64,000 bases of DNA from Callorhinchus milii (taxonomy: Eukaryota). Shown piece after piece: positions 16,174 through 56,773 of this stretch. Made by a program: the position numbers and the translations under genes. Below the pieces are notes generated by a model. The model saw nothing but the letters and a program-made list of their open reading frames with translations. It did no database searches and had not been told where the DNA came from. The stretch covers positions 52,702,001 through 52,766,000 of the forward strand of contig NW_024704742.1 of NCBI RefSeq assembly GCF_018977255.1, given 5' to 3'. Position 1 is the stretch's first letter, and every line of letters starts with the position of its first letter.

Positions 16174-16179
16174 TTTATT
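16174..16179 (-). terminator. Candidate polyadenylation signal (AATAAA) of the CNBD2-like gene
   Basis: First AATAAA about 140 nt past the stop codon; further copies near 16157 and 16124. Confidence 0.5.
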
Positions 16180-16318: not shown

Positions 16319-16561
16319 CTAAAAAGTCATCTTTCCTAGATTTGCAGAAGTCGGCTGAAGCCTAGCTCTGTCACCCAGCAGTTGACCAATGAGCCTAGTC
16401 TTGTAGCAGTTCCATTCCTGCTGTCTGGCATAGCTCTCTCTAATCCTCCGCTCATTAGGGTAGGTTTTCACTAGCTCCAGTGCTATTTGTCTGGACTTAA
16501 CTGGTGCCCCCTCAAGAAACAGCTTTTTGGGGATGAAAATGCATTCTGCTCCCTCACTAAC
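16319..16561 (-). CDS. CNBD2-like terminal coding exon ([15 protein letters not shown]...KMTF*)
   Basis: ttttctgtctgcAG acceptor; 80 codons plus TAG; C-terminal YP....I...Y..Q..W..YK motif resembles CNBD2. Confidence 0.92.
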   Translation of the reverse strand, partial: VSEGAECIFIPKKLFLEGAPVKSRQIALELVKTYPNERRIRESYARQQEWNCYKTRLIGQLLGDRARLQPTSANLGKMTF

Positions 16562-19500
16562 CTGCAGACAGAAAACAAGGATGTCCCATTATTATAACAT
16601 ACAATTTAAATGGTTAAATTGAGCTATATGCACATGTGAATTAAAAAGATTTACAGCAAATGAAGTAAATGATCACTTTTATCTGGGACATTGTTGGGCA
16701 GGACACGGGGAGAAACTCCCTTCTCTTTTCAGGTAGTTTCCTGAAATCTTTAACATCCACCTGAACAGGTAGACGGGAGCCACTGTCTCTATTGTGATTC
16801 ATTGTGTAATAGGCTGCTTCTTTTATAATTAAACACAGATCAATGTAACGTTATGCTGTATATCATTCACTTCTTGGTGGAAAACTATGTGAAAGCTCTT
16901 TTGAATTATTTTTTCAATCAATGGCACAGAGTTTTATGTACCACAGGAATATCTTAAACCCAGCAAATGATGAAATAATAAACATATACACCTGGTTAGG
17001 ATGAGATTATTAAAATTTACATTGTGATCAAATTGGATTAGACGACAGTTCAACGTCTCGGTATGAACACAATCTAGTTGCATCAGAGCAGAGTTCCCAC
17101 AGTTAGCATGATGTATTTCCATTTTCTTTATTAAGGAATCATTTGAGAAACTGCTACATGTTAGACACCTGTATGGGTGACAATTAGCCAGTATGAGTTA
17201 CTGTCTTCCTCTTTGAGTAGATTTAAAAGTTTGATAATCATCCATTTACTCTTCTTTGGAAGCTTCATGTTTTCTATGTTATGATGTTGGCCACAGTTAC
17301 TATTTTCAGTTTTCATCTTTGGTGCATTTGAAGTGATTGATGGACTTGTGATAGCTCTGTGTAGGTTGTGAATATAGGTTAATGAATTTGTTCCTAGTCA
17401 TTCCGAGAAGATATTTTAATAATTTCAGCTAATACCTGAGGTGTCAATGTTAATGTTTGCAGGAAACCCAAATGTAATAAAAGTTGGATTCAAACTTTTT
17501 TCTAAAAAATATCGGTCTCCAGAAATACGAGTGGGGAATAAAGGAAGGAATGGCTAAAGTAAAATAAAATCATTATTACCCAAAATTTTACTCAATCGTA
17601 GCCTGTAGATGATTTTGTCTAAATAAGTAACATTGTGCAGTACTATGGAAAATTCTTAAATTCAGTCTTAATTTGAAAGTACATCGCTTTTGAAGAACTG
17701 TGTAAAACTGGCTTTCAATTTAAAACCAAATTTAAGAATTTTCCACAATTCCGAATCATTTTATATTTCATATAAATTTTATATATTTTTATATATAAAA
17801 AATTCATATATATTTTATATGGTCTAAACAGGCTACAGTGGACATTAAAGATCCTTTGGGACTATTTGAAAAAAGAAATGAATTTCTCATAGTGTCCTGG
17901 CCATCAATCCTCCAAATAAAATCAGTTCATTCATTTCATAGCTGTTTGTGGGATATTGCTGTGTGCAAATTGGCTACAGCATTTGTCACCAATCACTATA
18001 CTTTACAGAAATGCTTTGAGACAATCTCAACATATGTGTAATATTGCTATTAATTTTCTAATGTTAGTAAATCTAATTATTAGTAGATGAAATTGATGTT
18101 TAAATAGCTTCTCAATGTCTGTATTTTCAGTGTTACTAGAAACAGATGACAGTACTTCCATTAGGAAATTTCACCCAGTGGTATATTTGTTATTAAATAG
18201 TTCAATGGAATTTTGATCATGATATTGTATTAATCCCGTTTTTAACACTGTGCAAATTTTCATTCATACCAGACTCAATCGCAGGTCGCAGAGACTGCCC
18301 AAGATATCTGTCAGCCCCTGTGAACAAAAACATCAATACAAAGCAATTAATAAGATTAAAAGCAATAAGTGCAAATGGCAATAAAAATTCCTAAATTGCC
18401 ATTCCTAAATGTATCCTTTTTTCCTGTTTGCCAGGAATATTAAATAAACTTATCAACTTATCAAGCGCTCCCAGATGCTACCCTAATTGAGGGATACTAT
18501 ATAAATGCAAGTTGTTGCTGTTATTGCAATTTTTCTTCAGGAAAGAACACCTCCCCCCCACCCCCCACCCAGCCTGACTTTCAGAGAATAGGTTCTCAAT
18601 CCAAGTCTTGGATTGAGGCAGAGTGACTGGGGGATGGAATTCCAGAGGTTGGGGACAGAGTGGCTGAAGGCTTTCCCGCCAATGGTGGGGCAGTTGGGTC
18701 GGGGGACGTGGAGAAGGCCGGAGCCGGCTGAACGGAGGGAACGGGCGGGTTGGTCCGGGATTAGGAGGTCGCAGAGGTAGTGTGGGGCGAGGCCATGGAG
18801 GGCTTTGTATGTGAGGATCAGGATCTTGAACTGGATCCTCTGAAGGATAGGGAGAACAGAATTGAAACAGCACCAACTTTTTTTGTAATGTAGAGAGAGA
18901 ATCATTTTTGCAGATTCCTAGCCACTAGAGCTGTATTTTTACTTTTAAAATTATCCTGGGTCACTAACTATTGAAGACATGCAAACTACGTGCTCTCTAT
19001 AGGCTGATTAAAGACTTCCTTGATTATTGTAGATTGGTGTAAATGATATGTTTATATTGAAGGTAATGTGAATGGGTGATTTCACAGTTCTTATATACTT
19101 AAATACATGCAGGAGAAGCAAATAGAGTGTTGTGGGATTAGGAGGGTATGGTAATTCATGATGAATAAAAACACTGCCACAAACAAGTTGAGCCGAATGT
19201 CAGCTTATAAATTGACCATATTCTATGTAATTCTATATAATATTGGTGTACTCTAAATGTTAGGGTTTTGGCTTGCACATCATGTATAGTTACGGTACCC
19301 TCATTAGTATAGTAATCCTAACTCTTGCGTAATGCTATGTTTTGTGGGCTGATTGCATATGTTTTATTTATCATAGTACAGTATAAATTAAAAATCTTAA
19401 ATTGTACTTAAATTAAATAACTGCCGCCCACTATATAATGAAAAATGCCATAGCCCAAAGTGCGAAAGTTGAAAGAGTTTCTTTATACCTCTGATTCAGA

Positions 19501-22500: not shown

Positions 22501-25500
22501 ACATCCAATCATTCTGTAACACAACTTATTACAGTTAAGCATCAGAACAAACCAAAAATTAACATCCTTGAACCCAGGAATTTATTCTTTACCCAGAGGA
22601 TAATTACTGAAACATGAACCAGGAAGGGTAGTTGAGGCCAGGACACTGGATTCATTCATAATAATGAATAATAACAATCCTTTGATGTAGAGCCTTATCA
22701 CATCATTGAAATGCCTCAAAGCACACGGAACAAAGCACATGGAATATACTGTAAAGTGGATTGACTGTGTATTTTGTGGGCGAATCACGACAGCCAATTG
22801 AGGATAGCAGTGTCCCACAAACAGCCATTGAATGAGTGACCAATTTTATTTGGGGTAATGTTGGTTAGGAGACCAGAGAAAACTCCCATCTCTTTTCAAA
22901 TTATGCCAAGGGGTGTTTAACATCCATCTGAACAGGCAGATGGAACGTCGGTTTAACATCTCATCCAAAGGACAGCACCTCCCAACAATGCAACACCCCC
23001 CAAGCACTGCATCAGAGTGTTAGTTTAGATTATGTGATTCCAAATCCAGACATAGGGCTTGTGGGGCCACAACCTAATGATTCAGAGGAGAGAGTGCTAC
23101 CACTGCACCAGGCTGACACACTTTTATAAAGCAGCTTAATGTTGTGATGGAAGGATTTGAGGGTGGTTATTCTGGAAGGATAAGATCAGTTGGGCTGAAG
23201 GGCCTTCTTCATCCAAACCAATCTTGTGATATCTTGTGATAACCTTCTGACTCAGAAGAGCAAGGCTGCCAACAATATGCTAATGCCGTAAACAAAGTTG
23301 TTGAAATTGAATGGAAAATAAATGAGATGCTGTTTCTCAGTCTGAGTCTGATGTCTTTGGGCTCATTGAATACAAAAAAAGGTCAGTGTCACTTTTACTA
23401 AATTGTTACATTCAACTCAAATTGTTATTGTTTGCATATTTCCCTAGCCAATACATCAATGCTGAAGCCGATTGTAGAAGCTTCTTCTGTTGGTCTGTAT
23501 CTATGGCACTACTAATGAGGAGCTAGTCTTGTAGGAGACTTTATGCCCTCCCCCCATTTGAAATAAGAATATAATAGGATCAACAGAATAGTTTATCATT
23601 TTGGAATAAAACATCAATTTTATTACCTGCCTGGGAACTATTGAATCAGTATCTCTCCCTCCTAGTCTGCTTCATTTAAATTACCAGCTAGAGCTGCTCT
23701 AAAGAAACATCACGGGGCTGCTGCTTTACACTGCTCTAGGAAATGCTCCCGAATATTATGTATAAACAGCATGAATAGCAGGAGGCTTAGAATGTCACTG
23801 GTCACTACTTTTCTTACTAATCAACATCTACCATTGCTGAACCAGTTTTCAAACCAATTGGGTAATTTGCTATTGATATTGATCCCAAGGATTATTGATT
23901 CCTTGGGACTTAGTTTTCTCTTGTACAATCTTAGCAAATGATCCCTGAAATTTGTGTGAATTCTATGCATTGCCCTCTCATCCCATTTAGGGTACGTTGA
24001 AAGTGTAGGACATTGGGATTAGGATGGCTGGCTTCTTGGAGGAGCAAACACAAACGATGAGCTAAATAGCATCTTGTTGTTTCATATATTTCTATGGGTC
24101 GATGGTTCATCAACTCATTTAGTTACCTCCTCAAACAATTAGTATTGATTTGTGATTCACAAAGCCTATTGTTTCTAGATCAATGCAACTCTTCCTTATG
24201 TCACCTGCACTCTTTAGATGAGCATTAATACCACTGTATAGAATGCCTTAAACTGTATTACTTTCAAAGTTACACTGGCTCAATTGCCAAGTGAATATAT
24301 TAGCTCTTCTCTGGTTATCAGTATGGGAATTGCTATCTTCTATCTCAAAGTATTGAACTAATAAAAATATTAACCAATTCCTCACTCATTCATTATGAGG
24401 TGTTTTGAGATGTTTTGAACTAATAAAAATATTTTTTTATTATAAGGTGCTATGTCAAATGCAAGAATTGTTATTGTTATTTATGGTCTCTACATATATG
24501 AAGATCACCCTAAGAGTATTGAATTGCTTCATTCTTTCTTTTGTTTCTAGTTCACGCTACAACTTTGATTGACAGTGAATTTCTAATCTCAAGTTGTACA
24601 TGATTTATTGCCATCTTCTTAATTTTTCTGTCACTTTCCTGACTGCATTATACCTATTATAAAACAAATGTGAAAAACTTTGAAATAATCAGGGTCTCTT
24701 ATGAAATCGGCAAGGCTGTTCGATATGTGAATAATCTCATAATATAAAATATTTGCATATCTCAGTAGGTTACTGTTAACAACAAAAACAACAAGATTAC
24801 ATTTGTATAATGCCTTTCACGTCGGGAGGACGTTAAATCTTTGACAGGCACTTTTATGGCCCACAAATACAGTCAATCCACTTTACAATATATTATGTGA
24901 AGCGCATTGAGACATCTCAATGATGTGATAAAGCGCTATGTCAATTGCTAGGATTATTATTATTATTATTATTATTATGACAACGGCTTAATGCTACCCT
25001 TGCTAGTGCATAAAGTAAGGCCATCTGTGAAGTCTAGAGGCCAATAAATAAGATGGACTAACATTAGTGTGTCATGAGACCTGTCTCAGGAGGCCACTGT
25101 CACTCTCTCTTGCTCGAAGTTCTTTACCACTATGCAATTCTTTCCAAACAATCTGTTCTGTAGTTTTGAATCAGCTCACCAATTCACTCTGTTGTGACAT
25201 TGCAATGGATGATATCTTACCATTACCAAAATGCTTGTACTAATTTTACGAACAAATATGCTTACATGTACAAGCCAATGATTCATTGTATATTGTCATA
25301 TTAATTATTTCAGTTGTTACCAAGAACCACCAATATCAATTCTAAAATGTTACTTTATGTAATCTATAGATGATGTTACAGAATATGATACACTAAATAG
25401 AGAATTAAAATTTGGTAAAATTATTTTTTTTAAAAACTTACAAAAACACCTCCTTGTTCCAAAACTCCTATTTTCAAAAATTTAAATTGAGAGGACTCTG

Positions 25501-28500
25501 TCAGCTTTACCTTTGGCGTACAAGGATCCTTTGAAAGATAAACAAATTATTTGTATATAAGCACAGTACATAAATACTAAAGCAACCTGTAAGATAATAT
25601 GGAATAGCTTCCCCAATGCCCTTGTACATAAAGCCACAATCCCATAAAGCACAAGGCTAAACAGATCAGAACATGGCACGTTTGTGCTCAGTTAGCAGTC
25701 TGGGTGCTCTAAGTGGCTTCTGCTATCCGGGGTTAGAGAAGGTAAATCCAGCCAAGACTCCTGTCCTGATGGGTGTCCAGTGACTTGCTCGAATGTGCAA
25801 GTGTGGATCTTTGGTACTAACGGAATCTAGTTCCATGATGATTCTCCCTAAATCGGTTTCTCCTCACTTCAAGGTTTTTTCACACACCTATAATTGATGC
25901 TTGGAAAAGGTACTGGAGGGTGACAGATCCCAACAGTGATATCAAAATCCTACAGTAACTCATTGATGGTGCTCTACTGCTTAAAAGACCAAACACAGGA
26001 CTAAAAATCACATCTTTCCAGATTTTAGATTCACTTTGAAATATTCAGTTGGTTCATTTTAAGATGTCTACAGGCTTTTAGTTTGAGGGAATTGCATGTG
26101 CTCCCAAAATGGTGCTTGTGACCGATGCACCTCCTCAACAAAATTGACCTCCTGCTCTTCAAAATGTTTCCTTTATGCATCCTTCAGCCGTGTGGTAAAT
26201 GAATTAGTTAATTTCCAATTAGTTATACTATTTAAATCAGTTAGTAAAAAATATTTTTGATTTGCTAGCTTAATTTGCCATTGATAGGAAATTACCAGTC
26301 AGGATATAGCAAATATTGTCGCAAAAGATTGGTGGTAAGTTTACATGATGAATCCATAAAATTGCACCAAAATAGCCTTTGTGCCCTTATGAAGGATGAT
26401 TTCAGCCAATATCACTGCAGTATGAGTCACATGGGGCATCATCATATCAGTTTGTTATAGCAGCAGAGCCATCCACCTGATCCAAAGCACAGAATTTGAT
26501 GAGTGTACAAATGTAATTGAAGGTTGAATGTAAGCAGACCTCAGCTTCATTCTAACCCCTGTTTGTCAGTGTAAACAAAGTATAAGGCTTTTATCCATTC
26601 TAAACGGCCTTTGGATCAAACCTCTACTGTTGTGCACATTCCCTGTGTATCAATTAATAATTTAGTGATCTATTCTTCAGCACATTTTGCAGACATAATT
26701 CATTCAGAAGTAACCCACAAAGACACAATGGAAATTACCTTTTCCTAAATGAATTGAGTTTTTATGTTGCTTTTGGGTGCACCGCCTGTGTAAGGATTTT
26801 GCATTGGAGTTCATTGAAGTGAGTACAGTGTAATTGGACCAAGTGTTAACTGACTGACGGCGAGACCTTCACTCACATCCAATGGCTAGGAATCTCTGTC
26901 CCCTCAAAAGAGGATTCTTGCCTCTATTTTCTTCAGGAATCTGGTCATGTTGATATTTAATTATGTTGCTAGCAAATCTTAACTGAACCTTGTTACAAAT
27001 AATCCAGTAAAACTAGAGATTCTATCAATAATTTGCAAACTTTAAAAACCAAACATTTGCCATTTAAAAAAAATTAAAAACTTGCTAAATGCTCAGAGAT
27101 CTATTTGTCCATAATATGAATAGATAAATAAAAGAACTATCAGGATTTGTAGCACAATAATTTGGTTCCTATCATCTCCCTAATTAAAATATGTTTTGTT
27201 TGAAATATGTGGAATCTATAATATACAGAATGCAGAAATGGTGAAAAGATAATTGAGAAGATGGAGGGCAGTAGACATAAATTAAACTAGCTCATTTGGA
27301 AAGAACATATAAAGCATTACCTTTATTTTGTGCAGTTCTTTTCAAGGTATTAAATATACAATTAATGGAATATAATAATCCTTGCTTTTGATTTCACACC
27401 TTTCCCATAAGGAGGACATCTCACAGTTCTTTCCAGAATATTGTACTGTAAAGTGTACGTGACTGTCTATTTTATAGGTGAACATGGCATCCACTTTGCA
27501 CACAGCGAAGTCCCACAAGCAGTCATAAAGTGAATGAACAATTATATTTGGGGAAGTGTTGGCCAGGATACCAAGAGAAACTCTCTTCTCTTTTCAAATA
27601 GTGTTATGGGATGTATAACATCTACCTGAACAGTAGACGGACCTCAGTTTTAATACCTTATCTGCAGCATGGCACCTCTGACAATGCAGCACACTACCAG
27701 CTCTGCACTTGAGCATTACCAACTGACCCAGGCTGACGCACAATATTGACAGAAATCAGGAACTAACTAATGGCCCATAAATGTGTCTCACCGGCTGAAG
27801 GAAATTGTGAGTAGGACTTGATGGAACAAAGTGAAAAAATCTTTCTGTGATATAGTAAATGAAAAAGAACTAGTGAATAGCACATATCAAAAATGCATGC
27901 ATTTTGTCCCAGAATTTTTCAAGCAAAAAATGTTTTGTTTTGTTTTGATGAATTTGAATCATTTTCCTGAAAATATCAAGCAGAACATCAACGGAGGAGT
28001 ACAAGTGGCATAAATGTGCAAAACAAGCATCTTGACCCATATAACATCATCCACAATGAATGCTTTTTCACAAGCTGTTTATTATGTTTTTTAATTTTTA
28101 ATACGCTATCTGTTTAAATTCAGCTTAACTCACTTGCACGGAGTTGAGCACCACCGAGTGCTGTGGTCAGATTTTTACTCATTGGAACGATGCCTGACTT
28201 TACCAGAGATGAATGCTATAGAATAGGATTCTGAATTCAGGCATTGTACTGAAGTGCATGAATTATGTGCACTTTCAATCTACAGCACTCTGAATATTAT
28301 GTTCAATGTATTTATTCACTTTATAGTCATACAACTACATCATTAACTTTGTTTGTTTCCAGCAAAGAATTCATACTTGTTGCACATTTTTATTCAACTG
28401 ATAGCAAATTGCAATAATAAGAAAATAAAAACATAAGAAAAGTCAGCATGAGAAAAGGCTATTCAGCCTACTGGAGCTTATCCCTTCAGTACATTATCTC

Positions 28501-43500: not shown

Positions 43501-46500
43501 CTTCACTCCCACAACAGATGAAGGTGCTACCCATAGCCTGATATATTAGCTCCTCATAGCATTGGCAGCACATGACTGGTTCCAATTCACCCTTTTAGGA
43601 ACCTTTCACTGCTTAGTGCTAAATCCTCAATCCGTCTGTTAGAAAGTGATGCACTTGTGCTTCCATTTCATCTGCTAAGAAAGGGGCCAACACCATTGAC
43701 ACCAGAATTGGTTCCCTCGTGACTTGTCTATTTCCATAGCCTTTCAGATTTCCACTTCCCTTTGGATCCGAAATATCAAGTGAACAACACTTCTTTTTGT
43801 AAAATATTGATGTTACATTGTATTTCATTGCCATCTAGTGGTCATAAATGTATTGTTGTCTAAGTGCGTTTCAAAATATTTTCATTTCTTCACTACTACC
43901 ATCTCATTATAAATGTACTTTATTTCTGCTTTTATGGGGAAGCTCTGGGGTGCCATTTTCTTGATTCTGATCCTAAGAAATAGAGGTGGTGAAGGATCCT
44001 ATTCCCTTATCTCCCAAACTGTTCATACTCCCACTATATCTGTCGATTGCTTTGACTTTTACCCTATATGAAAAACACTTTAAAAGTCCAAATTGTGCTG
44101 TTGATGTGGCCACTAGGCAATGAACAAGACCAGATTAGATGACTCGCCTTGTCTCCTTTCCTATTTGTGGTATGTACCTTCACTCATGCCTTTTGCCAAC
44201 ACACAAGCAATTATTGGAAACTAAACGTTGAGGCTTACAGGGTGAACCCATGTACCACCATTCTGTGTTCCCACACATGATGCCTGCTGCACTAAAACTT
44301 TGCAGGATAGTAATGTCCCACAAACAGTCATCAAGTGAATGATCATTTTTTGGTCTCCGAGGGATTGTTGGCCTGAACACCAAGAGAAACTTTCTTTTCT
44401 TTTTGAATAATGCCAGGAGATCTTTAACACCCACCTGATGTTAAAGACATCCAGGGAGACAAACCCTGGTTTAATGTCTCATCCCATGAACAGCACCTCT
44501 AACAACTCAGTGCTCCCCACAGGACTGTCAGCCTAGTATGTGTGCTTAAACTATTGCTTGTATAGGAAAACAAGCAGTCATTTTATGCACAGCAAGGTCC
44601 CATAAAAGCAGATAAGATAACTCAGAATTATCAACTCATCAATGGCTGGACGCATCGTCAAAGAGGTAGACCCTTCAGGTAGGAATTGAGAGAGGAGAGG
44701 GATTTTGGGAGGCAGTTCCAGAGGTAAAGCACAAAGTCTCTGAACCAGCACCAAAGGTATAGTAGTGAGAGTGAGGCATGAAACAAGCTAAAGTTAGTAG
44801 AGTGGAAGGAGTGGATAGTAGAGTAAGGTAACAGACAATCACAGAGATAGGACGATGCAGAGATTTGGAAGTGAGAACAAGGACCTTAAGGATCTCCATT
44901 AAGGGATAAGCAGCCAGTGAAGCCAGGTGAGCCAGGTGAGGATTCACGTGAAGGGCTCACAGAGAGGATATGGGCGGCAGAGTTCTGTATGACCTGGAGT
45001 TTGTGGAGAATGGAGCTGTTTCACAGGATACACTGGAAAGTGTAATGACTGTGCCTTCTATAGCCACACATGGCAGCCAAATTTCCCACAGCACCAAATT
45101 GTGATCAGGAGCACAAAACATGGTGCTGAGGCCTATTGGCACTCCAGTTCAATCTTCAATTTTTCGATTGTCATTTGCTTAATAAAAATGTCAAAGACTT
45201 TTAAACTGCATGAATTGTTGGCTATGTCGTCAATGTAAATAAGTAATGATTTCATTTAGCAAGGTGCACAAGTAGCAAGTGCCAAGCTGGACAAATTCAA
45301 GGCCTTTGGTTAGAATAATGCTTAACAATAATCCTTGCATTTGATATAGCGCCTTATCACATCGTCAAGATGTCTCAAAGCACTTCACAGAATATGCTGT
45401 AAAGTGAATTGACTATATTTTGTAGGCAAAATGTGGCAGCCAATTGTGCAAAGCAGTGTCCCACAAGCAGTCGTGGATGGAGTGATTTATTTATTCGTTT
45501 TACTTAAAGCAGTTGACTGCACATTGTCATTCATTTCTCTCTTACACAAATTTACATTCTGGTATCTGCAGATTTTTCAATAATATTTTAAGATAATGAA
45601 GGTGTCACCTTGTATCAGTTGGTACCACTCACAACTCTAGACCAGAAGATCTGTTGTTTGTTTATGTTGTAGGAATAATGTTTTACAGTACCTCAATAAA
45701 TCAATGACTCCGTTGTATCGTTGCTGAAGAAATTTGCCCAATGTAGATCCAAAATCCTGAGAATTAAAATCAATAGAATGTAGTTAAAAACATAGCTCTA
45801 CCAATAGTGTAAAAAAAATCAGCAGACGACATAAGTGTGCCAGCCTCATTTAGTTAGCAGCACTCTTACCTCTGAGTCAGAAGGTTGTGGGTTCAAGCCC
45901 CAACAACAAGATTTAGAATCCATCTAGTCTATCCTGACACTCCAATCCAGTGTTGGGGGAGTGCTGCATTTTTGGCAGTGCAGTCCTTCCGATGAAATAT
46001 TAAACTGAGGTATCATTTGCCTGTCCAAATGGATGTTAAAGAACCCATGGCATCATTCAAAAAGAGAAGTGAGTTTCTCCCGGTATCTCAGTCAACAATC
46101 ACCCAAATAAAATTGGTCACTCACTCCATGGCTGTTTGTGCAACACTGCTGTACAGAAATTGGCTGATGCAGTCGCCCACAAAATACACAGTACATCACT
46201 TTTCAGTATATCTTGTGAAGTGCTTTGAGACGTCTCAATGACAGGATGAGGTACTATATCAAATGCAACGATTATTATTATAAATATCATGGTGTACAGT
46301 GATTGTACCATCTCTCTCCCTATCCTTAGCCCCTCACTGGCTACCTGTGAATCTCACAAAAGAATTGTCTTTCTCTTCAAGGCTATTATAATACACAATG
46401 ATTTTTGAATGCTTTTTTGTTGGTTATTTTACTCACAATTTTCCACATTAGGATATATTTAACAGGAAAAGGCCTTAAACATCTACCTTGGATGCTGAAC

Positions 46501-49500
46501 CTCATCAGGGAGTTGGCAGGAATTTGACATTTAATATGACACCTAATATGAATATGAATTTAAGCATAAAACTGAGGAGCTAACTTTCAGCTTCAAAAAC
46601 TGGGTTTGAAAACCACAGCTGCTTCCACAAGAAACCTGTTCTACAGTATTACAAGGTGCTTTCCATGCTTGTTTATAGGGAAGTGGAAAAGTGATTCAAA
46701 TTCGGAGAGAAATTTTTATAACTGTCAACCCAATCCAAAATGGTTGGATTACTGCATTTGCATCAGTTCTGGGTAACTACACCCATTCATTGTTATAACC
46801 TGGCAAGTAGGTTCTTGTAATCGGCACCTTTGGTATTGCTCATGACCTTGACACTAAGAGATTAACAATTGTGGTGTTAGTGCTGCACATTCAGCTCAAA
46901 AATAACTTGCCTTTAATTAGTGGGAAATTCCATAGCCTGATTATATTAAAAGGATAGAATTGGTAGAACATACAGTAGGTTAGCGTGACCTGTGGAATAC
47001 TTTACAGAGAGGAACAATACAGTACAGATTTACATTTGTGTAGCCCCTTTCATGTGGGGGGTGGGGGAGAGTCTCAAAGCACTTAACAGAATTGCTGGTT
47101 ACCCGAGCTTTGGTTGCTTCAGTGGCCTCACTCGCCTGGATTAGAGAGAGGTAAGATAAACCAGGATTCCTACTCCTGAGTGCCTGAGTGAACCCTGCTG
47201 GAAAGGTAATTTGTGAATGAGTGTCAGGATTCAATTGGGATGTCATGCTCATGGTTTTTCTGGATTCATAGGCTTCTGACACATATTTTCCAGCTTCATA
47301 TTTAAAGAATAATTACTAAGCCAAGATAATGGAGCAACTTATATGTCAGGATGCATCAACATCTTCAGGAGAGGAGGAAAGGATACCGGAGGACAAAACT
47401 ATCTAAATGTCCTTATACTTGTTTAGTCAATAATGTTTTCCATTGTTACTATATGTATCCAGGAAACCAAACAATATCTTATATCTCGATAGCGTGGAGT
47501 ACCCTGTAAAATGTCAAACTCCGGTTCAGATACTGAATACTTTTTCAGTTAAGTAAACTTTAATGGTTCAGTAATATTACTCTAGAGTAATAGTGACACA
47601 TAGTACAATGCTTATGGATAATTGCCAACTCTGGTAACCATAGCTCCCCTACTCAAACACATACCTCCTTGTTTATCAGTAAGAGCTCCACATCAGTCTT
47701 GCAGACAATGGTAGCAGGACGCTTTTTGTTGGTCAGAAGAGTAGCTTCCTGAAAAATATAAATTTGGGAAAGTTGAAACAGTCAGTGGCAACATGAAAGA
47801 ACATTAAACCGACTCTGGCTCTTAGTAAAATTGTGAAGCAGAAATGGAGCTCACCCCAAACAAATCACCTTCCTCAATTTCATGCAGAAATTCTGTTAGG
47901 GGGCTTCCAACTTTGGCAGAGATTTCATTTGATTTTGCTGCCATTTTACCAGTAAGTACAAAATAACACGATTCAGGTTGGTGGCCTTCACGCACAATGA
48001 CTGTTTGTGTTTCATATCTAAAATTAAGGGAAAGTACATTGAATAATTAAGTTACGCATTTGGAGTCTCTGATTTCTCCCCATCTCCAATAACTGGTGAA
48101 GTGTCTGTAGGGAAATACATGAACACACAAATTTACATTTTATAACTATAAAATGTAGAAGACACCAATAATATGATCTGTTTGATTATTTGACTATACA
48201 CAGGGACATAGTCATATGCAGAATTGGGAAAGACCATTTCCAATTACTGAGTTAAGCTGCTATCTATGAAATATCACTGAAATACCACTCTTCGCAGTCG
48301 GCAAAAACAATGGTGCTTAATAGTAGCATGAAAAATGAGCATGATGAAACTCTCTAACCAGCTTCAAACTCAAACACTGTACCAAATTTGGGGTGAGTTG
48401 GGGATCAGTCTTTAACAGTTGTTTTTAAACACATTTGTTGTGATCGCATCAAATCTGTATGAGTCAAATTGAGTTTGCTGTACTTTGTTCTCACACCCAT
48501 AAACAATCCTTGCATTTGATGCAACGCCTTATCACATCTTTGAGAGGTCTCAAAGCGCTTCACAGAATATACTGTGAAGTGAATTGACTGTATATTTTGT
48601 GGACGAAACGCGGTGGCCAATCGCGCACAGCAGTGTGCCACAAATAGTCGTGGATTGAAGTGACCTTTTTTTNGAGGGGATTATTACACCTGGAAAAGCG
48701 ATCCGCCAATCAACTAACAACTGGGTTCCTAGTTACTGCAAGTAAACAGAGGAGTCTGGAGTAAGGAAATTTGCCCAACATTTCAGCCGGAAATCAAACC
48801 CTGGTCCTCTTGCTTGCGAGGCGAGTGATCTAACTACTAAGCTACAGGACTCCAAATTCAAGTTTTGCTCTCAAAGAACAGATTTAACAATAATCAAAGA
48901 ACATGTGACCTATTGCAATTGGCAGATGCATTGTTGATTAAACTATTTCTGCATGTTGTTTCACTTACTGTTGGTACACTGCAGCTTGGCAAACCTCCAA
49001 CTGAACATTATGGGGTAGGACTTGAAAAGTTTGGTTCTTGCGTAAGAGTGATTGTATCTTTAAAACAAAAGATGTTAAAATAACAATATTTTGAATTAGA
49101 ACCAGGCAATAAAATATTTACAGTACATAATCACAGCTACCAAAGCGACAAATAAAGACACACGCAGAGCTCCAGTCTCTTTGCTATAGTTGTGCTGACT
49201 ATTTTAATGGAGAAAGATAGTTGAAGGACACAGGGTTAGAGTGCAAACGTTGAAAGGTAGGGTAGGGCGAGGCCATGGAGGGCTTTGTAGGTTAAAAAGA
49301 GAGACACTGAATCGAAAATAATGCAAAGACAACTAATGACAGAGCACATATATGATTAAACGTTAACTGATATTTGTATCAGTAAAATATCTAGAGTTTG
49401 TACAGACAGTTAAAGAAATGGTTAAAAATAATGAATAAATCTCATTCACCATTAACTCAATCAATATTACCATTAAAAGTTGCATCCTGATAACAGTGAA

Positions 49501-52500
49501 TAGTTTATTAACGTTTGTTGGGAAGTCTGTCAGAAATCACTTTGTGCTATTACCAGTGCAAGTTCCTGTTTGCTTCGTAGCAAAGGAGAAACATGGAGCA
49601 GGCTCTTCAGCTTTGTAGAGTCTCTTTCCTGCAATAAAACGAAGGGTGGATAAATTTTTTTACTGGTAAGCAAAAGAGCTCAGTCAATATCTTTTCATAG
49701 GCATTTTAATATAACTCTGAAAAAACGATCTAACACAGAGCTAACTGATAGATCGAATATAATAATAATAATCCTTGCATTCAGTATCACAACAACAAAA
49801 TTACATTTGTATAGCGCCTTTCACGTCGGGAGGACGTCCCAAGGCGCTGGACAGTGTACAGCATTTCAGACCCGAGCTGGGGTCAGGGTGGGAGAAGGGA
49901 GGGGAGGGGGAAGGGGGTGGCCGATGGTATGGTTGAAGAGGAGGGTCGAGGCGGGACTTGAAGAAGGCTAAGGAGTCGGCGAGGCGGAGTGATTAGGGGT
50001 TGGGGGCAGAGTGGCTGAAGGCTCTCCAGCCAATGGTGGGGCGGGTAGGTCGGGGGACCTGGAGCAGGCCGAAGCCGGCTGAGCGGAGGGAGCGGGTGGG
50101 TAGGTAGGGGGTTAGGAGGTCACAGAGGTAGGGTAGGGCGAGGCCATGGAGGGCTTTGTAGGTGAGAACCAGGATCTTGAACTGGATCCTCTGAAGGATA
50201 GGAAGCCAATGGAGTCAGGCGAGAGTGGGGTAGATGGGGTCACAGAGTTTGATGTGGGAGAGGACACGGGCTGCAGAGTTCTGGATTATCTGCAGCCTGT
50301 GGAGGGAGGAGTTGGGAAGGCCGACACACAGGTGTTTGCATAGTCGCGCCTGGAGGTGATGAAGGCATGAACAAGAGTTTCAGCGGCCTGAGGGGTGAGG
50401 TAGTGGCGGAGTCGGGCAATGTTACGGAAGTGAGGGAAGGCAGAGCAGGTCATAATAATAATAATATAATAATAATAATAATAATCCTTGCATTTGATAT
50501 AGCGCTTTTCACGTCGGGAGAACGTCCCAAAGCGCTTCACAGAACACACTGTAAAGTGAATTGACTGTAAATTTGTGGGCGAACACGGCAGCCAAATGCG
50601 CACAGCAATGTCTCACAAACAGTCGTAGATTGAAAATGCCAATTTTATTATTGTTTTTGGTTTTGGAGGGATTATTATTAGGCTCTGTGTGGAGTAAGGA
50701 AACTTGCCCAAGGTTTCGCCCTGTCTGGAATTGAACTCAGGTCTCTCGCTTGCAAAGCGAGTGCTCTAACCACTGAGCTACAGGACTCCATAAGTCATGG
50801 CTTGTATGTGGGGAAGAAAAGACAGTTGAACGTCGAACAAGACATCTAGGTTCCTGACTGGTTTGGTGAGTTGTAGTGAGCAACCATGGAGGTTGATGCT
50901 GCAGAACCTGAGGTGCTGAGGCGCTGGCGAGAGGCAATCAGGAGGGCCTCGGTCTTGTTCACATTCAACTGTAGGAAATTTGCCCTCATCCAGGACTTGA
51001 TGTCTGACAGGCAGTCTGTCCTGGAGTTGAGGAATGGTAAAACAGCAGGAATGGAAAAGAGTAGTAGCCAACAGAAGATAAAAGAATGAAGTAGAATAAA
51101 TTAGCAGAGCAAAAACATAAAACAGGAAAATAAACATAACCCGATTTACAATCATACAGGAATGAATACTAAATAAAATAACACCTTATTTAGTATTCAT
51201 TCCTGTATGATTATAAATCTGGTTATGTTTATTTTCCTGTTTTATGTTTTTGCTCTGCTATTCTATTTTACTTTATTCTTTTATCTTCTGTTGGCTACTA
51301 CTCTTTCCCCTTCCTGATGTTTTACCACACCCCAAATATTACAATTGCAAATGACTATATTCACACAAGAGATTACAAGAAAGGTTTGGAAGAAGAAAGC
51401 CTTTTTGCACATCTGATCTCATCGTTCCAGAATACCCACCCTACCATCATTTACAGCGGAATGATACAACCATTTGGCTGCTAAGAGCTGGGTGCCCTAT
51501 TTGAGAAATATCTGCGGGCCACATAAGCAATATTTTGTGTTTCCCTACCAGAATCATAACATTACTGATTATATGGATGGAGCAGGTGGACCAGATGAAA
51601 TGGAGGATGAAATCAGCCCATGGCCACCAGTTGGATCATTCTGATTTACAACATCAAGCTGTTCCTTAAATGAACAGCTATGTATCGTTTTCTGTGTAAA
51701 CAAATACTTTCTAGTTCCTGTCCTAAAATTATCCTTCTCAATACTGAGAATGTGGTATTCTTTGTTTGAAAATGACTAATGGGAGGACATAGTAATAATA
51801 ATAATAATAGTAATAATAATACAGTACTAACATTTTTCTTCTTTGTAAAGCTGTGAATGTTAAACAACAGCTCCTTGTCAAGGTCTGCCTGCTTTTTTAG
51901 AAGGTTTGCCACCCACTGTGTCACCTTAGTCTTGTGTATATACCTGAGAAACAAAATATTAATTCAGCATCTTAATACTTTTTTTATTGTTATTTTCTTA
52001 TGGTTAAACAGGGTCATAAGGCAACTCATGACGAGGGAAAAAAAGACATTTAAGGCCATGAAGGAAAATGGCACAGAGGAAAGATGGATTAATTACCAGA
52101 AGGCATACCATGTAAAAATGGTATCAGAATGGCAAAGAAACATTTTGAACTGAACATGGCAAGATATGTGAAGGATAACAATAAAAAGTTTTCCCATTAT
52201 ATTAAGAGAAAAATAAAAACAAGGGATGGAATAGGGCCATTGAAGGTGGAATTGGGTGAGGATAAGACAAATAATGCTACACAATCTGCAGAAGTACTAA
52301 ATAATTTTTTTGCCTCAGTTTTTACTAAAGAGGAAATGCGATTTTCAAGGTAAAGATAAAAACAGATTAATTTAAAGTCTGCACATGTAATTACTCTCAA
52401 GCGTAGTGACTGTTTTTCTAGATATACACAGCAATTATTTGCATCAACAAGATCCTACAACACCCATAAGGCTGTTAATCTAAAGAATTGTTGAGCTGGA

Positions 52501-55500: not shown

Positions 55501-56773
55501 ATAACTAAGATTGAGAAATTATATGGATTCAAAGTTTCATCCTCCTACAGACCATTGCAACTCACCATTGTACACCTTTCCAATCAATAGCTTCCTTTTA
55601 TTTTCTAACTATAATAACGACTTGCATTTATATAGCTCCCTTCATGCAGAAGTCAATGACGGACCATGTGGATTTATCCCAAATTAACAGTTTAAGGGGA
55701 AAAAAGAATGTATCAGTTTGTGGGGGATTTACAAATCAAGCCAGAGCGCTCCATTTTAGCTGGAGCAAACAGTGAAGAAGTGGTTCTAGGACAGAACTAG
55801 GTCGTTATTGTTGTTTTGAGAAAGAGAGACACACAACTCTCTTACACACATACATTCAAAGGGTTACAAACCCACAATGTTTGACATCTTATTCTGGGGT
55901 TAATTATTTCCTCTTCAGAAATATACAGCCAATCTATGAGGATAATAATAATAATAATCCTTGCAATTGATATCATGTCTTTGAGACATTTCAAAGCACT
56001 TCACAGAATATACTGTAAAGTGAATTGATTGTATATTTTTGTGGACAATACGCGGTAGCCAATTGCATACAGCAGTGTCCCACACATAATCGTGGATTGA
56101 GTGATCCAATTATTATTATTATTATTATATTTTTTGATGGGCTTATTATCCCCAGCAAGCGATCTGCCAATCGATTAACAACTGGGTTCCTATTTACTAC
56201 TACGTAAACAGAGGCAGGTGGAGTAAGGAAGCTTGTCCAACATTTCGTTCTATGCCGGGATTTGAACGCAGTGCCTCTTGCTTGTGAGTGGAGTGTTCTA
56301 ACCACCAAGCTACAGGACTCCACTTGATATTGTTTGAACCAGTGACTGAAACATGTTTTCCTAATGCAAAGTTATTAATCCAGTTTTGGTTCACTTATTG
56401 TTTAAAAGTTTAATTTAATAAACATCGACGTACAGACTATTTTGTTAGATATTTTACCCATGTGCATACAAATCTGGTTGTTGCCTTTCTGATATTGACC
56501 ACAGCTGCCAATTTAAATCACTTGGCTGGTACTGTATGTAGTTGCTATATAGGCTTGTAAATAATAATAATCCTTGCATTTGATATAGAGCTTTGTCCAG
56601 AAGTCTCACAGGAAACACTGCAAAGTGATGTGACTGTGCATTTGAGCTGTGAACTTTTTCTTGCTGTTCTGTGTTGAATAAATTACAAACTAAATAAAGA
56701 CTCACCTCTTCAGAGCCAGGTTCAACCCGCAGATAGTTTTTACAATCCTGGCAATTCTTTGGAAAGTTCCCAT
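16319..56773 (-). CDS. Cyclic nucleotide-binding domain-containing protein 2-like (CNBD2/CRIS family), 16 coding exons, 520 aa
   Basis: Manual splice join 56773-56706, 51943-51832, 49628-49554, 49057-48969, 48017-47855, 47748-47665, 45756-45692, 41314-41237, 39728-39668, 38365-38212, 31229-31147, 30131-30032, 27844-27792, 25528-25442, 18317-18270, 16561-16319. All introns are GT-AG with compatible phases; total 1563 nt, no internal stop. Motifs: [90 protein letters not shown]. Motif order and several intron positions resemble CNBD2 as recalled. Orthology not established. Confidence 0.9.
18270..18317 (-). CDS. CNBD2-like coding exon 15 ([16 protein letters not shown])
   Basis: tttttgttcacAG acceptor, GTATGA donor, 48 nt. 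Confidence 0.87.
18590..18852 (-). mobile_element. L2 fragment
   Basis: [26 protein letters not shown]...GGKAFS. Confidence 0.85.
21430..21760. repeat. Second copy of the unclassified ~600-bp repeat
   Basis: Colinear with 54217-54615 (gttgacatgc, ctctgtggtggtc, gttcctgagccaggca, gcctggctcat, gaaagctt.ccagacag). Confidence 0.85.
22660..23121 (-). mobile_element. Full-length Deu-domain SINE (SacSINE1/AmnSINE-like)
   Basis: tRNA-like head tgtgtcagcctgg...; Deu core gttgcattgttgggaggtgctgtcctttggatgagatgttaaaccga; 3' part shared with the young SINEs. Confidence 0.85.
25442..25528 (-). CDS. CNBD2-like coding exon 14 ([29 protein letters not shown])
   Basis: tttatctttcaaAG acceptor, GTAAGT donor, 87 nt; the CNB-B barrel resumes here (I..LE.G..FG). 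Confidence 0.87.
27372..27742 (-). mobile_element. Deu-domain SINE
   Basis: Deu core at 27560-27705. Confidence 0.8.
27792..27844 (-). CDS. CNBD2-like coding exon 13 ([18 protein letters not shown]), insert region
   Basis: tttttcatttactatatcacAG acceptor, CCG|GTGAGA donor, 53 nt; the only candidate found that restores phase 1 to 0. Confidence 0.6.
28428..28690 (-). mobile_element. Degenerate CR1 3' end
   Basis: aacataagaa...aaggctattcagcc pattern, the reverse complement of a CR1 tail. Confidence 0.55.
29143..29582 (+). mobile_element. Candidate solo LTR
   Basis: TGTTATG...CGTAGCA imperfect terminal inverted repeat, internal 27-bp tandem repeat, ATTAAA near the 3' end; no TSD seen. Confidence 0.4.
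30032..30131 (-). CDS. CNBD2-like coding exon 12 ([33 protein letters not shown]), insert region
   Basis: ttgtctcatAG acceptor, AG|GTACTT donor, 100 nt, phase 0 to 1; GC-richer than its flanks. Confidence 0.7.
31147..31229 (-). CDS. CNBD2-like coding exon 11 ([28 protein letters not shown]), insert region
   Basis: cattttctttctAG acceptor, GTAAGA donor, 83 nt, phase 1 to 0; supported by splice signals and phase, not by homology. Confidence 0.7.
32343..32610 (-). mobile_element. L2 3' end fragment
   Basis: Tail and 3' UTR similar to 58238-58500. Confidence 0.8.
33704..34581 (+). mobile_element. L2 LINE 3' fragment, older subfamily
   Basis: [41 protein letters not shown]; (GTT)n tail. Confidence 0.92.
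35251..35821 (-). mobile_element. U2 snRNA-headed chimeric retroelement (SINEU-like)
   Basis: 35821-35768 matches U2 nt 1-54 at 47/54 positions; about 500 bp of non-U2 body ending in a hairpin, AATAAA and an A-rich end. Confidence 0.65.
35768..35821 (-). pseudogene. RNU2: U2 snRNA 5' fragment (nt 1-54)
   Basis: atcgcttctctgccttttggctagggtcaagtgtagcatgcgtttttatcagtt vs U2 ATCGCTTCTCGGCCTTTTGGCTAAGATCAAGTGTAGTATCTGTTCTTATCAGTT. Confidence 0.9.
36226..36296. repeat. (TA)/(CA)n microsatellite
   Basis: Directly visible. Confidence 0.95.
37112..37560 (+). mobile_element. Deu-domain SINE with a nested CR1 tail (about 37401-37495, minus strand)
   Basis: Deu core; inserted cataggaacataggaacaggagaaggccattcagccc. 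Confidence 0.8.
38212..38365 (-). CDS. CNBD2-like coding exon 10 ([10 protein letters not shown]...KCKGPLLQ)
   Basis: ccttatcAG acceptor, GTAAGA donor, 154 nt, phase 0 to 1; KS|GRC junction resembles CNBD2 SK|GSC. Confidence 0.85.
39668..39728 (-). CDS. CNBD2-like coding exon 9 ([20 protein letters not shown])
   Basis: tctctctcacAG acceptor, GTAAGT donor, 61 nt, phase 2 to 0. Confidence 0.88.
40540..40790 (-). repeat. Old interspersed repeat (related copies at about 25670-25930 + and 47085-47255 +)
   Basis: Shared motifs ggttagagaaggtaaa..agccaag..tcct.tcctga, cctgctggaa, ggtactggag. Confidence 0.55.
40925..41140. repeat. Purine-rich low-complexity tract
   Basis: About 215 bp dominated by A/G on the + strand. 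Confidence 0.85.
41237..41314 (-). CDS. CNBD2-like coding exon 8 ([26 protein letters not shown])
   Basis: tgttcctggcAG acceptor, GTTAGA donor, 78 nt; LP.F..W..EKL start of the second CNB domain. Confidence 0.88.
42246..42672 (+). mobile_element. Full-length Deu-domain SINE
   Basis: Same architecture. Confidence 0.85.
44300..44540 (-). mobile_element. Deu-domain SINE fragment
   Basis: Deu core, reverse complement. Confidence 0.7.
44560..45010 (-). mobile_element. Degenerate L2 fragment (different family)
   Basis: [23 protein letters not shown] C-terminal RT remnant. Confidence 0.6.
45692..45756 (-). CDS. CNBD2-like coding exon 7 ([22 protein letters not shown])
   Basis: ttaattctcAG acceptor, GTACTG donor, 65 nt, phase 0 to 2. 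Confidence 0.87.
45836..46282 (+). mobile_element. Full-length Deu-domain SINE
   Basis: Same architecture as 22660-23121. Confidence 0.85.
47665..47748 (-). CDS. CNBD2-like coding exon 6 ([28 protein letters not shown]), phosphate-binding cassette
   Basis: tatttttcAG acceptor, GTATGT donor, 84 nt; FGE..LL....R.AT cassette across the exon 5/6 junction. Confidence 0.95.
47855..48017 (-). CDS. CNBD2-like coding exon 5 ([23 protein letters not shown]...IEEGDLFG)
   Basis: CNB beta-barrel motifs; ttaattttAG acceptor, GTGAGC donor, 163 nt. Confidence 0.93.
48500..48854 (-). mobile_element. SINE (long form)
   Basis: Matches 1285-1644. Confidence 0.9.
48969..49057 (-). CDS. CNBD2-like coding exon 4 ([29 protein letters not shown])
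   Basis: cttttgttttaaAG acceptor, GTAAGT donor, 89 nt, phase 0 to 2. Confidence 0.88.
49554..49628 (-). CDS. CNBD2-like coding exon 3 ([25 protein letters not shown])
   Basis: ttttattgcAG acceptor, GTAATA donor, 75 nt; P..R(S/T)..E motif that precedes the CNB domain. Confidence 0.85.
49789..51033 (-). mobile_element. L2 LINE 3' fragment interrupted by a SINE
   Basis: L2 C-terminal peptides ([26 protein letters not shown]) and tail; SINE inserted at 50453-50790. Confidence 0.92.
50453..50790 (-). mobile_element. Young SINE (short form) nested in L2
   Basis: Full length; GTCAT duplicated on both sides (candidate TSD). Confidence 0.93.
51035..51327. repeat. Long inverted repeat (142-bp arms, 9-bp loop)
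   Basis: 51035-51176 is the reverse complement of 51186-51327 with 9 mismatches and no indels (hand count). Confidence 0.97.
51832..51943 (-). CDS. CNBD2-like coding exon 2 ([37 protein letters not shown])
   Basis: ttttgtttctcAG acceptor, GTTAGT donor, 112 nt, phase 2 to 0. Confidence 0.85.
51995..52350 (+). mobile_element. CR1 LINE ORF2 linker fragment
   Basis: [32 protein letters not shown]...[16 protein letters not shown]. Confidence 0.85.
53924..54796. repeat. Head-to-tail partial tandem (~1.4 units of ~600 bp) of an unclassified interspersed repeat
   Basis: 53924-54195 resembles 54571-54796; the middle portion also matches 21430-21760. Confidence 0.85.
54891..55159 (+). mobile_element. 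Young SINE (short form), 5'-truncated
   Basis: Reverse-complement match to 50453-50740. Confidence 0.92.
55942..56322 (-). mobile_element. SINE (long form)
   Basis: Matches 1285-1644. Confidence 0.88.
56706..56773 (-). CDS. CNBD2-like coding exon 1 ([23 protein letters not shown])
   Basis: Acceptor tcctgttctgctcccaacAG puts the exon start at 56780; ATG at 56773; donor AG|GTGAGT; phase 2 matches the next exon (LKR-Y). Confidence 0.8.

Follow-up and report, generated by a model that had tools for sequence, protein, structure and literature searches.

An ancient, uncharacterised paralog lineage of the CNBD2/CRIS family in Callorhinchus milii

Do the CNBD2/CRIS-like exons scattered over a 64,000-nucleotide stretch of the Callorhinchus milii genome (NCBI RefSeq assembly GCF_018977255.1, contig NW_024704742.1, positions 52,702,001 to 52,766,000; hereafter the window) form one intact gene, and is that gene CNBD2 itself or something separate? 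CRIS is one of few cAMP effector classes. The mouse protein binds cAMP and not cGMP (PMC3854790, Krahling et al. 2013). It alters the control of bending by Ca2+, and IQCB1, calcineurin and CaMKIV co-precipitate with it, calmodulin itself being missing from the partner table; its cyclic-nucleotide-binding domain (CNBD) has been called 'the only functional motif' (PMC3854790). Human CNBD2 is listed without a paralog in the available excerpt of one further source (PMC7436996).

The gene is real, protein-coding and intact. Sixteen minus-strand exons, separated by 15 introns that all have GT-AG borders, run from an ATG at 56773 to a stop at 16319 and join into 1563 nt, or 520 codons plus the stop codon, uninterrupted by any other stop (Table 1). 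A tblastn search with the sevengill-shark homologue (P0003) matched 14 exons at E<0.05, colinear and on the minus strand; exons 30131-30032 and 27844-27792 were added to give the full chain, which without them encodes 469 aa with the frame kept. The first-pass annotation had described 16 GT-AG exons encoding 520 aa without a stop, and our independent reconstruction arrived at the identical span and length, linker exons 12 and 13 being the weaker part. A profile built from 43 orthologues, from which the window's own sequence was excluded, matched 12 of the 3809 six-frame pieces of the window at iE<0.01, all on the minus strand and in order; as a control, none of 4082 pieces of the reversed window matched the same profile at iE<2. 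Ten of the 15 junctions fall exactly where a gap of one or more whole exons starts or ends in gene models built independently for shark, skate, turtle, skink, alligator and pika. Gaps entirely within the linker were filtered out, so that the junctions of exons 12 and 13 lie outside this comparison, and two further junctions matched no gap edge in the independent models. In a skate, the orthologue (P0010) reads as one ORF of 527 aa in a Logan contig of 1842 nt; the contig has no introns and therefore points to a spliced mRNA in this relative.

Table 1. Gene model and flanking features, in window coordinates
Feature	Position	Strand	Description
Exon 1 (aa 1-22)	56706..56773	-	N-terminal helix, basic and amphipathic; consistent with 1-5-8-14 and IQ-like calmodulin motifs
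Exon 2 (aa 23-60)	51832..51943	-	N-terminal helical region
Exon 3 (aa 61-85)	49554..49628	-	Helices before CNBD-A; absent as a unit from two homologue models
Exon 4 (aa 86-114)	48969..49057	-	CNBD-A begins
Exon 5 (aa 115-169)	47855..48017	-	CNBD-A beta-roll to F168-G169; Pfam cNMP_binding E 4.4e-5
Exon 6 (aa 170-197)	47665..47748	-	Phosphate-binding cassette, E170 and R179; Pfam cNMP_binding E 4e-4
Exon 7 (aa 198-218)	45692..45756	-	Helix joining CNBD-A and CNBD-B
Exon 8 (aa 219-244)	41237..41314	-	Degenerate CNBD-B begins
Exon 9 (aa 245-265)	39668..39728	-	Strands of CNBD-B
Exon 10 (aa 266-316)	38212..38365	-	Final strand of CNBD-B first half; disordered insert begins
Exon 11 (aa 317-344)	31147..31229	-	Insert, RPxT/S motifs
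Probable exon 12 (aa 345-377)	30032..30131	-	Insert; weakly homologous, with weak splice sites
Doubtful exon 13 (aa 378-395)	27792..27844	-	Restores frame after exon 12; next to no homology
Exon 14 (aa 396-424)	25442..25528	-	CNBD-B second half begins
Exon 15 (aa 425-440)	18270..18317	-	Degenerate CNBD-B phosphate-binding cassette: L426 for Glu, L436 for Arg
Exon 16 (aa 441-520 and stop)	16319..16561	-	CNBD-B end and C-terminal helix
AATAAA	16179, 16162, 16129	-	Downstream of exon 16
Candidate upstream exon	57121..57158	-	ATG 57158, donor 57121, phase 2; would add 15 residues in frame; without homology
ATG..GT exon of neighbouring gene	62602..62728	+	Divergent; 127 nt

By homology, fourteen of the 16 exons are fixed, exon 12 is likely and exon 13 is doubtful. 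Exon 12 shares 9-12 of its 33 residues with four sharks, and its acceptor takes ranks 1-3 among 177 candidate exon/frame combinations. Exon 13 has 1-3 identities in 18, and in run X2 one contig (depth 7.9 of 16.9) carries a one-base insertion in an A-run of this exon that would shift the frame. Because of this insertion and the poor support for exon 13, both the number of exons (16) and the length (520 aa) may be in error within the linker. At the other end, an additional exon upstream of exon 1 is probable, as the ATG at 56773 lies 7 nt inside an acceptor at 56780; exon 1 itself (22 aa) had no sequence match in the PDB. No RFX, FOXJ1, CRE or MYB consensus sites occur in 56645-57835 or 61331-62600, and a clear CpG island is lacking too, the o/e ratio of unique sequence not exceeding 0.6. 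The divergent neighbouring exon is one that we presume to be EXOC1L-like. Its 42-aa translation matched no family in Pfam, PDB or Atlas, yielding a lone chance PDB match at E 1.4 and a top Atlas score of 0.90 to unnamed clusters. A neuromedin-U motif was not found in six frames.

The encoded protein has the architecture of its family, an N-terminal helix, a CNBD, a split degenerate CNBD and a C-terminal helix, and can be aligned end-to-end with CNBD2. Its fold was read from structures predicted for two homologues, P0003 and mouse CRIS (P0312, recognised by the FGE starting at 277 as in PMC3854790), with pTM of 0.59 and 0.63. In these models there are two cyclic-nucleotide-binding folds, one intact and one degenerate and split by a long insert. 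In the predicted shark orthologue the two CNBD folds lie in tandem and the insert in the second is disordered; CNBD-A superimposes on Epac2 (1o7f) with Z 19.1 and rmsd 2.2 over 139 aligned residues, and residues 260-541 on PKG CNB-B (4qxk) with Z 15.8 and rmsd 2.7 (126/127 aligned). The predicted mouse CRIS has the same hidden second CNBD fold, also split by an insert. An internal repeat is found with hhalign (96%), with the changes of E to L and R to L in register. The tandem layout and fold are those of the PKA regulatory subunit, PKG CNB-A/B and Epac2 CNBD-A (5j3u, 4z07, 4qxk, 1o7f), Epac2 being the best match to CNBD-A plus its preceding helices. Unlike those proteins, the window protein has no detected kinase, inhibitor or GEF part, and the B domain of its lineage is split by the insert and lacks the binding Glu and Arg. 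The insert is 100-200 aa long across the lineage (40-66 in mammals), and the 130 aa in the window protein compare with 146-200 aa in full-length shark and ray rows. An RPxT/S motif occurs in 23/40 rows and in 0/7 mammal rows.

Does the protein still have a nucleotide pocket? Exons 5 and 6 match Pfam PF00027 separately, each alone under the curated cut-off, and orthologues reach 57-70 bits where the cut-off is 27.5. F168-G169-E170 and R179 have the spacing of mouse F277-G278-E279 and R288, and L217 and S220 stand where CRIS has its purine contacts F327 and N330. Across 44 rows, the binding residues of CNBD-A are retained as Gly in 43, Glu or Asp in 42 and Arg in 41, whereas at the equivalent CNBD-B columns (L426 and L436 here) Glu and Arg are present in 0/44. 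This contrast, which extends from shark to bat, suggests selection on the A pocket. An unlikely though by no means negligible alternative is that CNBD-A no longer senses nucleotide and that the protein is a structural or scaffold component of the axoneme or spermatid. It would fit the replacement of Glu by Asp in 19/44 rows, including every fetched elasmobranch row (the window protein keeps Glu, in contrast to these), the Cys or His in place of the cassette Arg in two crocodilian models, the Phe of the FGE motif being kept in 16/44 rows only, and the long branch (0.6) that leads to the vertebrate clade. Because of the Asp rows and the crocodilian Arg changes, some parts of the clade may bind ligand weakly or no longer; the near-constant Arg and acidic residue argue against a loss of binding from the lineage as a whole.

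The N-terminal helix offers a further lead, and only a lead. Using the definitions of the 1-5-8-14 and IQ-like calmodulin motifs in PMC4076516, the helix of the window protein has anchors F4, A8, V11 and L17 and a net charge of +3. The strict 1-5-8-14 pattern is found in 22 of the 37 orthologue rows that cover the helix, and in 34/37 if Met is allowed; the net charge is at least +3 in 36/37, the best of 474 columns. By chance, the calmodulin pattern arises in 42% of shuffles of the protein. The conserved basic helix is a putative calmodulin-binding site.

To place the gene, a tree was calculated with IQ-TREE under LG+G4 from 53 rows and 370 columns, with no mixture model, no independent root and no CNBD1 sequence among the rows. 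The window protein and 16 vertebrate rows form one clade (support 100/100), within which the branching follows the vertebrate tree, exon edges are common to members, and the window protein is sister to all shark and ray rows. The clade groups with seven sister rows at 100/99 (four of them named: Ciona, Glandiceps, Mizuhopecten and Patella); these sister proteins, from tunicate, hemichordate and mollusc, indicate that the lineage is no quirk of Callorhinchus milii. The 15 CNBD2 rows cluster elsewhere (100/99), and we place the split from CNBD2 before the protostome-deuterostome split. A Ptychodera clade (P0187, P0207, P0166, P0190), considered as a route to CNBD2, was dropped, being a separate lineage in the tree.

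Could the gene be the orthologue of CNBD1, the other mammalian CNBD gene of testis? CNBD1 is a poorly characterised testis-specific gene in the excerpts available (PMC7436996, PMC3639114). The name CNBD1 is absent, however, from those listed for clade members, the opossum, tammar, bat and pika ones being 'uncharacterized LOC' or 'CNBD2-like'. Dog CNBD1 is reported to adjoin CNGB3 and MMP16, whereas the neighbour here is presumed to be EXOC1L-like, and we regard CNBD1 orthology as improbable.

Could the copy in Callorhinchus milii be decaying or unexpressed? The contigs of X1, X6, X8 and X2 over 15900-31400 include no exon-exon joint among the matches listed, all of which lie at repeats. Run X1, presumably RNA, gives short low-depth pieces in introns and the last exon alike, and no RNA data set is listed as matching 15950-16600. 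These observations are neutral on expression. In favour of decay one may cite the frameshifting insertion in exon 13, seen in a single contig, the many orthologue models that are fragmentary or split in two (crocodilians, leatherback, lungfish, skate), and the lack of any protein more than 70% identical to the window's model among those compared. Against it, 14 conserved exons have neither stop nor frameshift, core identity to shark is 71% with a short end branch (0.2), and two substitutions in conserved exons are synonymous, both in contigs of depth <5. Decay or silence is, in our judgement, very improbable.

The comparison with CNBD2 answers our second question. The core of the window protein is 21% identical to mouse CRIS and 43-45% identical to the opossum and bat orthologues; within opossum, it is 23% identical to CNBD2 and 43% to the other protein. 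In opossum, axolotl and pika, which carry both genes, CNBD2 is not the closest relative by blastp bits (clade member vs. CNBD2: 228 vs. 135, 377 vs. 112 and 197 vs. 74, respectively). Both genes are recorded in six species, opossum, pika, axolotl, lungfish, Lerista and gavial, on contigs of unequal length in 5/6. In AU tests, forcing the two vertebrate groups together gave p 1.8e-59, and forcing the window protein with CNBD2 gave p 3.6e-31. A plain CNBD2/CRIS orthologue that diverged in cartilaginous fish is thus extremely unlikely, notwithstanding the 'CNBD2-like' name on 7/13 matches to the last exon, the green and loggerhead turtle members of the clade's cluster named CNBD2 outright, the overall architecture shared with mouse CRIS, and the absence of a shark CNBD2 among the best 120 of 257 matches. 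Because it has its own clade, the AU rejection, lower identity to CNBD2 and coexistence with it in six species, the gene belongs, on sequence grounds, to a separate paralog lineage and is not the CNBD2 orthologue. The first-pass annotation had proposed such a lineage and a tree with CNBD2 and invertebrate homologues as its check; the tree, the AU test and the species with both genes agree with it.

The same annotation had supposed the lineage to be absent from mammals, which is not the case. Orthologues are recorded in Monodelphis, Notamacropus, Artibeus, Phyllostomus, Glossophaga and Ochotona, some of them full length with both domains. The gene survives in sharks, amphibians, reptiles and marsupials and, of the placental mammals, in some (bats, pika); among the sequences compared it was not seen in teleosts or birds, and it is apparently without human annotation. 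Several uncharacterised 'CNBD2-like' LOC genes are orthologues (Heptranchias XP_067858001.1, Monodelphis LOC103097375, Phyllostomus LOC118501910, Ambystoma XP_069487728.1), auto-annotation having labelled orthologues 'CNBD2-like' or 'uncharacterized'. No paper on them was found in a search for 12 of the LOC identifiers. In Atlas, all clusters matched by the bat orthologue were cNMP_binding ones, with taxa given to phylum level.

The gene adds an uncharacterised member to a known family and does not represent a system of a new kind. Like mouse CRIS, its product is soluble and without a catalytic domain, has a first CNBD that is intact, FGE and cassette Arg standing at the same spacing as in CRIS, a predicted hidden second CNBD split by an insert, and a basic N-terminal and a C-terminal helix. 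Unlike CRIS, it has an R-P-A-T cassette, lacks the two purine-contact residues and has no C-terminal tail past the last helix. The best reading, by analogy, is a soluble cAMP sensor or adaptor of sperm or motile-cilium cells. In the mechanism that we propose, micromolar cAMP would quite likely bind CNBD-A through G169, E170 and R179. Binding would then, with somewhat less assurance, move the hinge helix of exon 7 and act on CNBD-B as a docking or allosteric domain; CNBD-B would be no second sensor, since the Glu and Arg are missing there. More tentatively, the N-terminal helix might bind Ca2+/calmodulin and the insert carry kinase sites, joining cAMP and Ca2+ signals. By family analogy, the protein probably acts where CRIS does, in developing sperm or in cells with motile cilia. 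Taken together, an intact gene for a soluble, kinase-less cyclic-nucleotide receptor, from an ancient paralog lineage of the wider CNBD2/CRIS family and working as proposed, is the best explanation, in which we have slightly better than even confidence.

A bolder reading, which we hold to be doubtful, is that this is a third, unnamed vertebrate CRIS-family gene, older than the protostome-deuterostome split and patchily lost, and that the whole family, CRIS included, consists of tandem-CNBD proteins in which one cAMP pocket is live and the other is a split pseudo-pocket, with an N-terminal calmodulin-binding helix, serving as direct cAMP/Ca2+ coincidence detectors for flagellar and ciliary beat. 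If true, coincidence detection would be the molecular link that has so far been lacking for the Ca2+-bending defect of Cris-null sperm. Two statements about CRIS itself can be tested: that it has a second, split, non-binding CNBD fold, and that a candidate calmodulin helix is family-wide. The conserved sister lineage, from sharks to bats, stands in databases as 'CNBD2-like', 'uncharacterized' or, wrongly, 'CNBD2'; because of this labelling, paralogs may be mixed in the published maps of where 'cnbd2' is present or absent and in expression data that carry its name. In an echiuran and a hemichordate, the ciliary bands of the larva are marked by genes labelled cnbd2, according to the available excerpts (PMC10380512, PMC13554239), and the label may cover either paralog.

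The gene is a real, conserved and uncharacterised paralog of a known kind, lying on the minus strand of a window that is AT-rich, full of repeats and vertebrate-type in composition. Its last exon has 13 relatives among 116 candidates, at 59–69% identity, from sharks, skate, turtles, frogs and one skink; seven of the 13 are named 'CNBD2-like'. Using tblastn with these relatives, we placed 14 exons in order, and with splice sites taken from the sequence the chain reads as 469 codons in frame. Adding the two linker exons (12 and 13) gives 16 exons and 520 aa, with GT-AG boundaries at all 15 introns, so that the intact in-phase gene of the first-pass annotation could be rebuilt. Of 3809 six-frame pieces, 12 matched a profile of 43 orthologues at iE<0.01, all of them colinear and on the minus strand; in the reversed window, used as a control, none of 4082 pieces matched. 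In models from other species, with linker gaps filtered out, gaps that span a whole exon start or stop at 10 of the 15 junctions, and no exon overlaps window-internal repeats.

The linker exons and the start are the weaker parts of the model. Exon 12 ranks first of 177 candidate exon/frame combinations for likeness to the shark linker and has the same end residues. Exon 13 was included mainly because it restores the frame: its identities are 1–3 of 18 and its likeness ranks 13th of 177, with splice sites that are the best among phase 1-to-0 candidates. In one contig of sequencing run X2, the six-A run at 27833 within this putative exon is one base longer; a second AG at 27840, four bases further in, would preserve the frame for that allele. 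In the conserved exons there are two substitutions, both synonymous and both from contigs with depth <5. The first ATG follows an acceptor by 7 nt; the shark proteins begin a few residues earlier, and a further exon may lie upstream in frame. The best identity of any of 349 fetched proteins to the model is ≤70%, so the window's own product is not among the records returned.

Features of the window and their coordinates
Feature	Position	Strand	Remark
Gene, exons 1–16	56773–16319	minus	
Candidate upstream exon	57158–57121	minus	in frame
Exon 12	30131–30032	minus	linker
Exon 13	27844–27792	minus	linker
Exon 16 (last)	16561–16319	minus	
Neighbour exon	62602–62728	plus	ATG..GT, 127 nt, 42 aa; head to head with the gene
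Broken LINE	2900–5565	minus	Exo_endo_phos_2 endonuclease and RVT_1 (E 2.7e-31) pieces in separate frames
Rfam tRNA match	351–422	minus	within repeated sequence
Rfam tRNA match	1562–1641	minus	within repeated sequence
Rfam tRNA match	50716–50787	minus	within repeated sequence
Rfam tRNA match	58086–58157	minus	within repeated sequence
Non-repeated stretch	7735–8332	both	several overlapping open frames of 50–103 codons

Our next concern is the relation to CNBD2 (CRIS), which was reached through a platypus protein (P0201) and a profile search, with 120 of 257 matches listed. A 53-row tree was built from 17 rows of the vertebrate group formed by the window protein and its orthologues (the clade), 15 CNBD2 rows and 21 others hand-picked from the 349 fetched; the linker was removed, leaving 370 columns, and LG+G4 was used without a mixture model or outgroup. 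The clade is supported at 100/100, with the window protein as sister of all shark and ray rows (100/99), a placement suggestive of a chimaera. It joins Ciona, Glandiceps, Mizuhopecten, Patella and three unnamed rows (100/99), and the CNBD2 group stands with other, unnamed relatives (100/99). The AU test rejects clade plus CNBD2 (p 1.8e-59), and the idea that the window gene is a CNBD2 orthologue is rejected by the same test (p 3.6e-31 for window plus CNBD2). The separate paralog lineage proposed at first pass is thus upheld. Since the mollusc proteins are closer to the clade than CNBD2 is, the clade/CNBD2 split would predate the protostome-deuterostome split, unless the tree should be rooted within that small set of rows. 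Both genes are on record in opossum, pika, axolotl, lungfish, Lerista and gavial, and within species they share 14–22% identity (four pairs measured). Database names and gene neighbourhood suggest that the clade is probably distinct from CNBD1. The dog CNBD1 adjoins CNGB3 and MMP16, according to an excerpt of PMC3639114. Proteins from anchovy (P0200), Prochilodus (P0188) and sturgeon (P0256) fall inside the true CNBD2 clade, in contrast to the statement that CRIS is missing from fish such as zebrafish (PMC3854790).

A search of a shark orthologue against 1.84 billion representatives returned 4581 matches at E≤0.001, of which 150 were listed; membership was defined by a first tree of 153 rows and by names looked up for 30 proteins. 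Members come from reedfish, bichir, gar, sharks, rays and lungfish, from axolotl, frogs, turtles, lizards and crocodilians, and from opossum, tammar, four phyllostomid bats and pika, the last group contradicting the suggested absence from mammals. Teleosts and birds were not represented among the named proteins, a minority of the 150 listed rows, in which clustering at 50% hides close relatives. In two crocodilian proteins (P0090, P0228) Cys or His replaces the phosphate-binding Arg, and crocodilian models are short (206–381 aa); gene decay in archosaurs is possible. Hits outside the vertebrate clade fall into numerous deep branches that share its architecture (P0073–P0208), mostly unnamed, the named ones being invertebrate, and the CNBD2-like family appears much larger outside vertebrates.

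In the AlphaFold2 model of the sevengill-shark orthologue (P0003; 64 rows, pLDDT 75, pTM 0.59), N-terminal helices are followed by a confident first cyclic-nucleotide-binding domain (CNBD-A) and a helix that links it to the first half of another beta-roll (CNBD-B); after a low-confidence stretch (345–459) come the second half of the roll and a long C-terminal helix. The CNBD-A model matches Epac2 (1o7f, Z 19.1, rmsd 2.2, 139 aligned), and single CNB domains are covered over their full length by residues 260–541 (4qxk, Z 15.8, rmsd 2.7, 126/127); Pfam detects the first domain only. CNBD-A conserves Gly (43/44 rows), an acidic residue (42/44) and Arg (41/44); at those columns CNBD-B has mostly Leu, and Glu or Arg in 0/44 rows. 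In the window protein the insert splitting CNBD-B is 130 aa long; full-length rows of bony fish, amphibians and reptiles have 88–117 aa and mammals 40–66 aa. Of 40 rows, 23 contain an RPxT/S motif there. Mouse CRIS (P0312, so judged from residue numbers) has the same predicted fold, its residues 316–569 matching PKA CNB-B (5kjy, Z 15.5, rmsd 2.8, 135/140). Pfam misses this second domain, and the CRIS paper, in which one CNBD counts as the sole functional motif, leaves it undescribed (PMC3854790, section 6). At the start of the domain fall F327 and N330, which the paper models as contacts of the purine.

Residues 4–17 form a basic helix matching 1-5-8-14 and IQ-like calmodulin motifs, as defined in a table excerpted from PMC4076516. 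The motif is strict in 22 of 37 orthologue rows (34 if Met is accepted), the site is the best of 474 columns, and 31 of 49 rows carry the motif family-wide, a pattern that is weak alone, being present in 42% of shuffles.

The residue after the phosphate-binding Arg of CNBD-A is Pro, whereas cGMP-selective domains carry Thr or Ser there, which would make cAMP the likelier ligand. By established CNBD chemistry, the Gly-Glu pair would grip the ribose, with the Arg holding the cyclic phosphate (PMC3854790). S220 occupies the position of CRIS N330; Arg is absent there, which has been linked to micromolar affinity (PMC3854790). As the protein has no catalytic part, its output would have to be altered shape and partners, via the hinge, pseudo-domain B and the C-terminal helix, and the N-terminal helix could bring in a Ca2+/calmodulin input. 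Our best guess, by analogy only, is that it acts in sperm or motile cilia, because CRIS knock-out alters Ca2+ control of flagellar bending (PMC3854790), because IQCB1, calcineurin, CaMKIV, IFT172 and KIF2A co-precipitated with CRIS (PMC3854790, sections 10 and 11), and because genes labelled cnbd2, which may belong to either paralog, mark ciliary bands of echiuran and hemichordate larvae in excerpts of PMC10380512 and PMC13554239.

Orthologues are already auto-annotated as 'CNBD2-like' or 'uncharacterized'. Misleading names (P0052, P0058, P0026, P0005) include 'CNBD2' on sea-turtle clade members (twice) and 'SS18-like protein 2' on a Platysternon member (once). A literature search covering main texts found no publication on clade orthologues. 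PMC7436996 lists human CNBD2 without paralogs, which would fit loss or non-annotation of the clade gene in human.

Elsewhere in the window, the 42 aa of the neighbour exon, which we take to resemble the start of EXOC1L, have no match in Pfam, PDB or Atlas, and the longest open frame of the non-repeated stretch has no Pfam match. Repeat fragments like the broken LINE are numerous throughout, internal repeats making up ~25% of the window, and the four tRNA matches probably mark the heads of tRNA-derived SINEs rather than genes for tRNAs.
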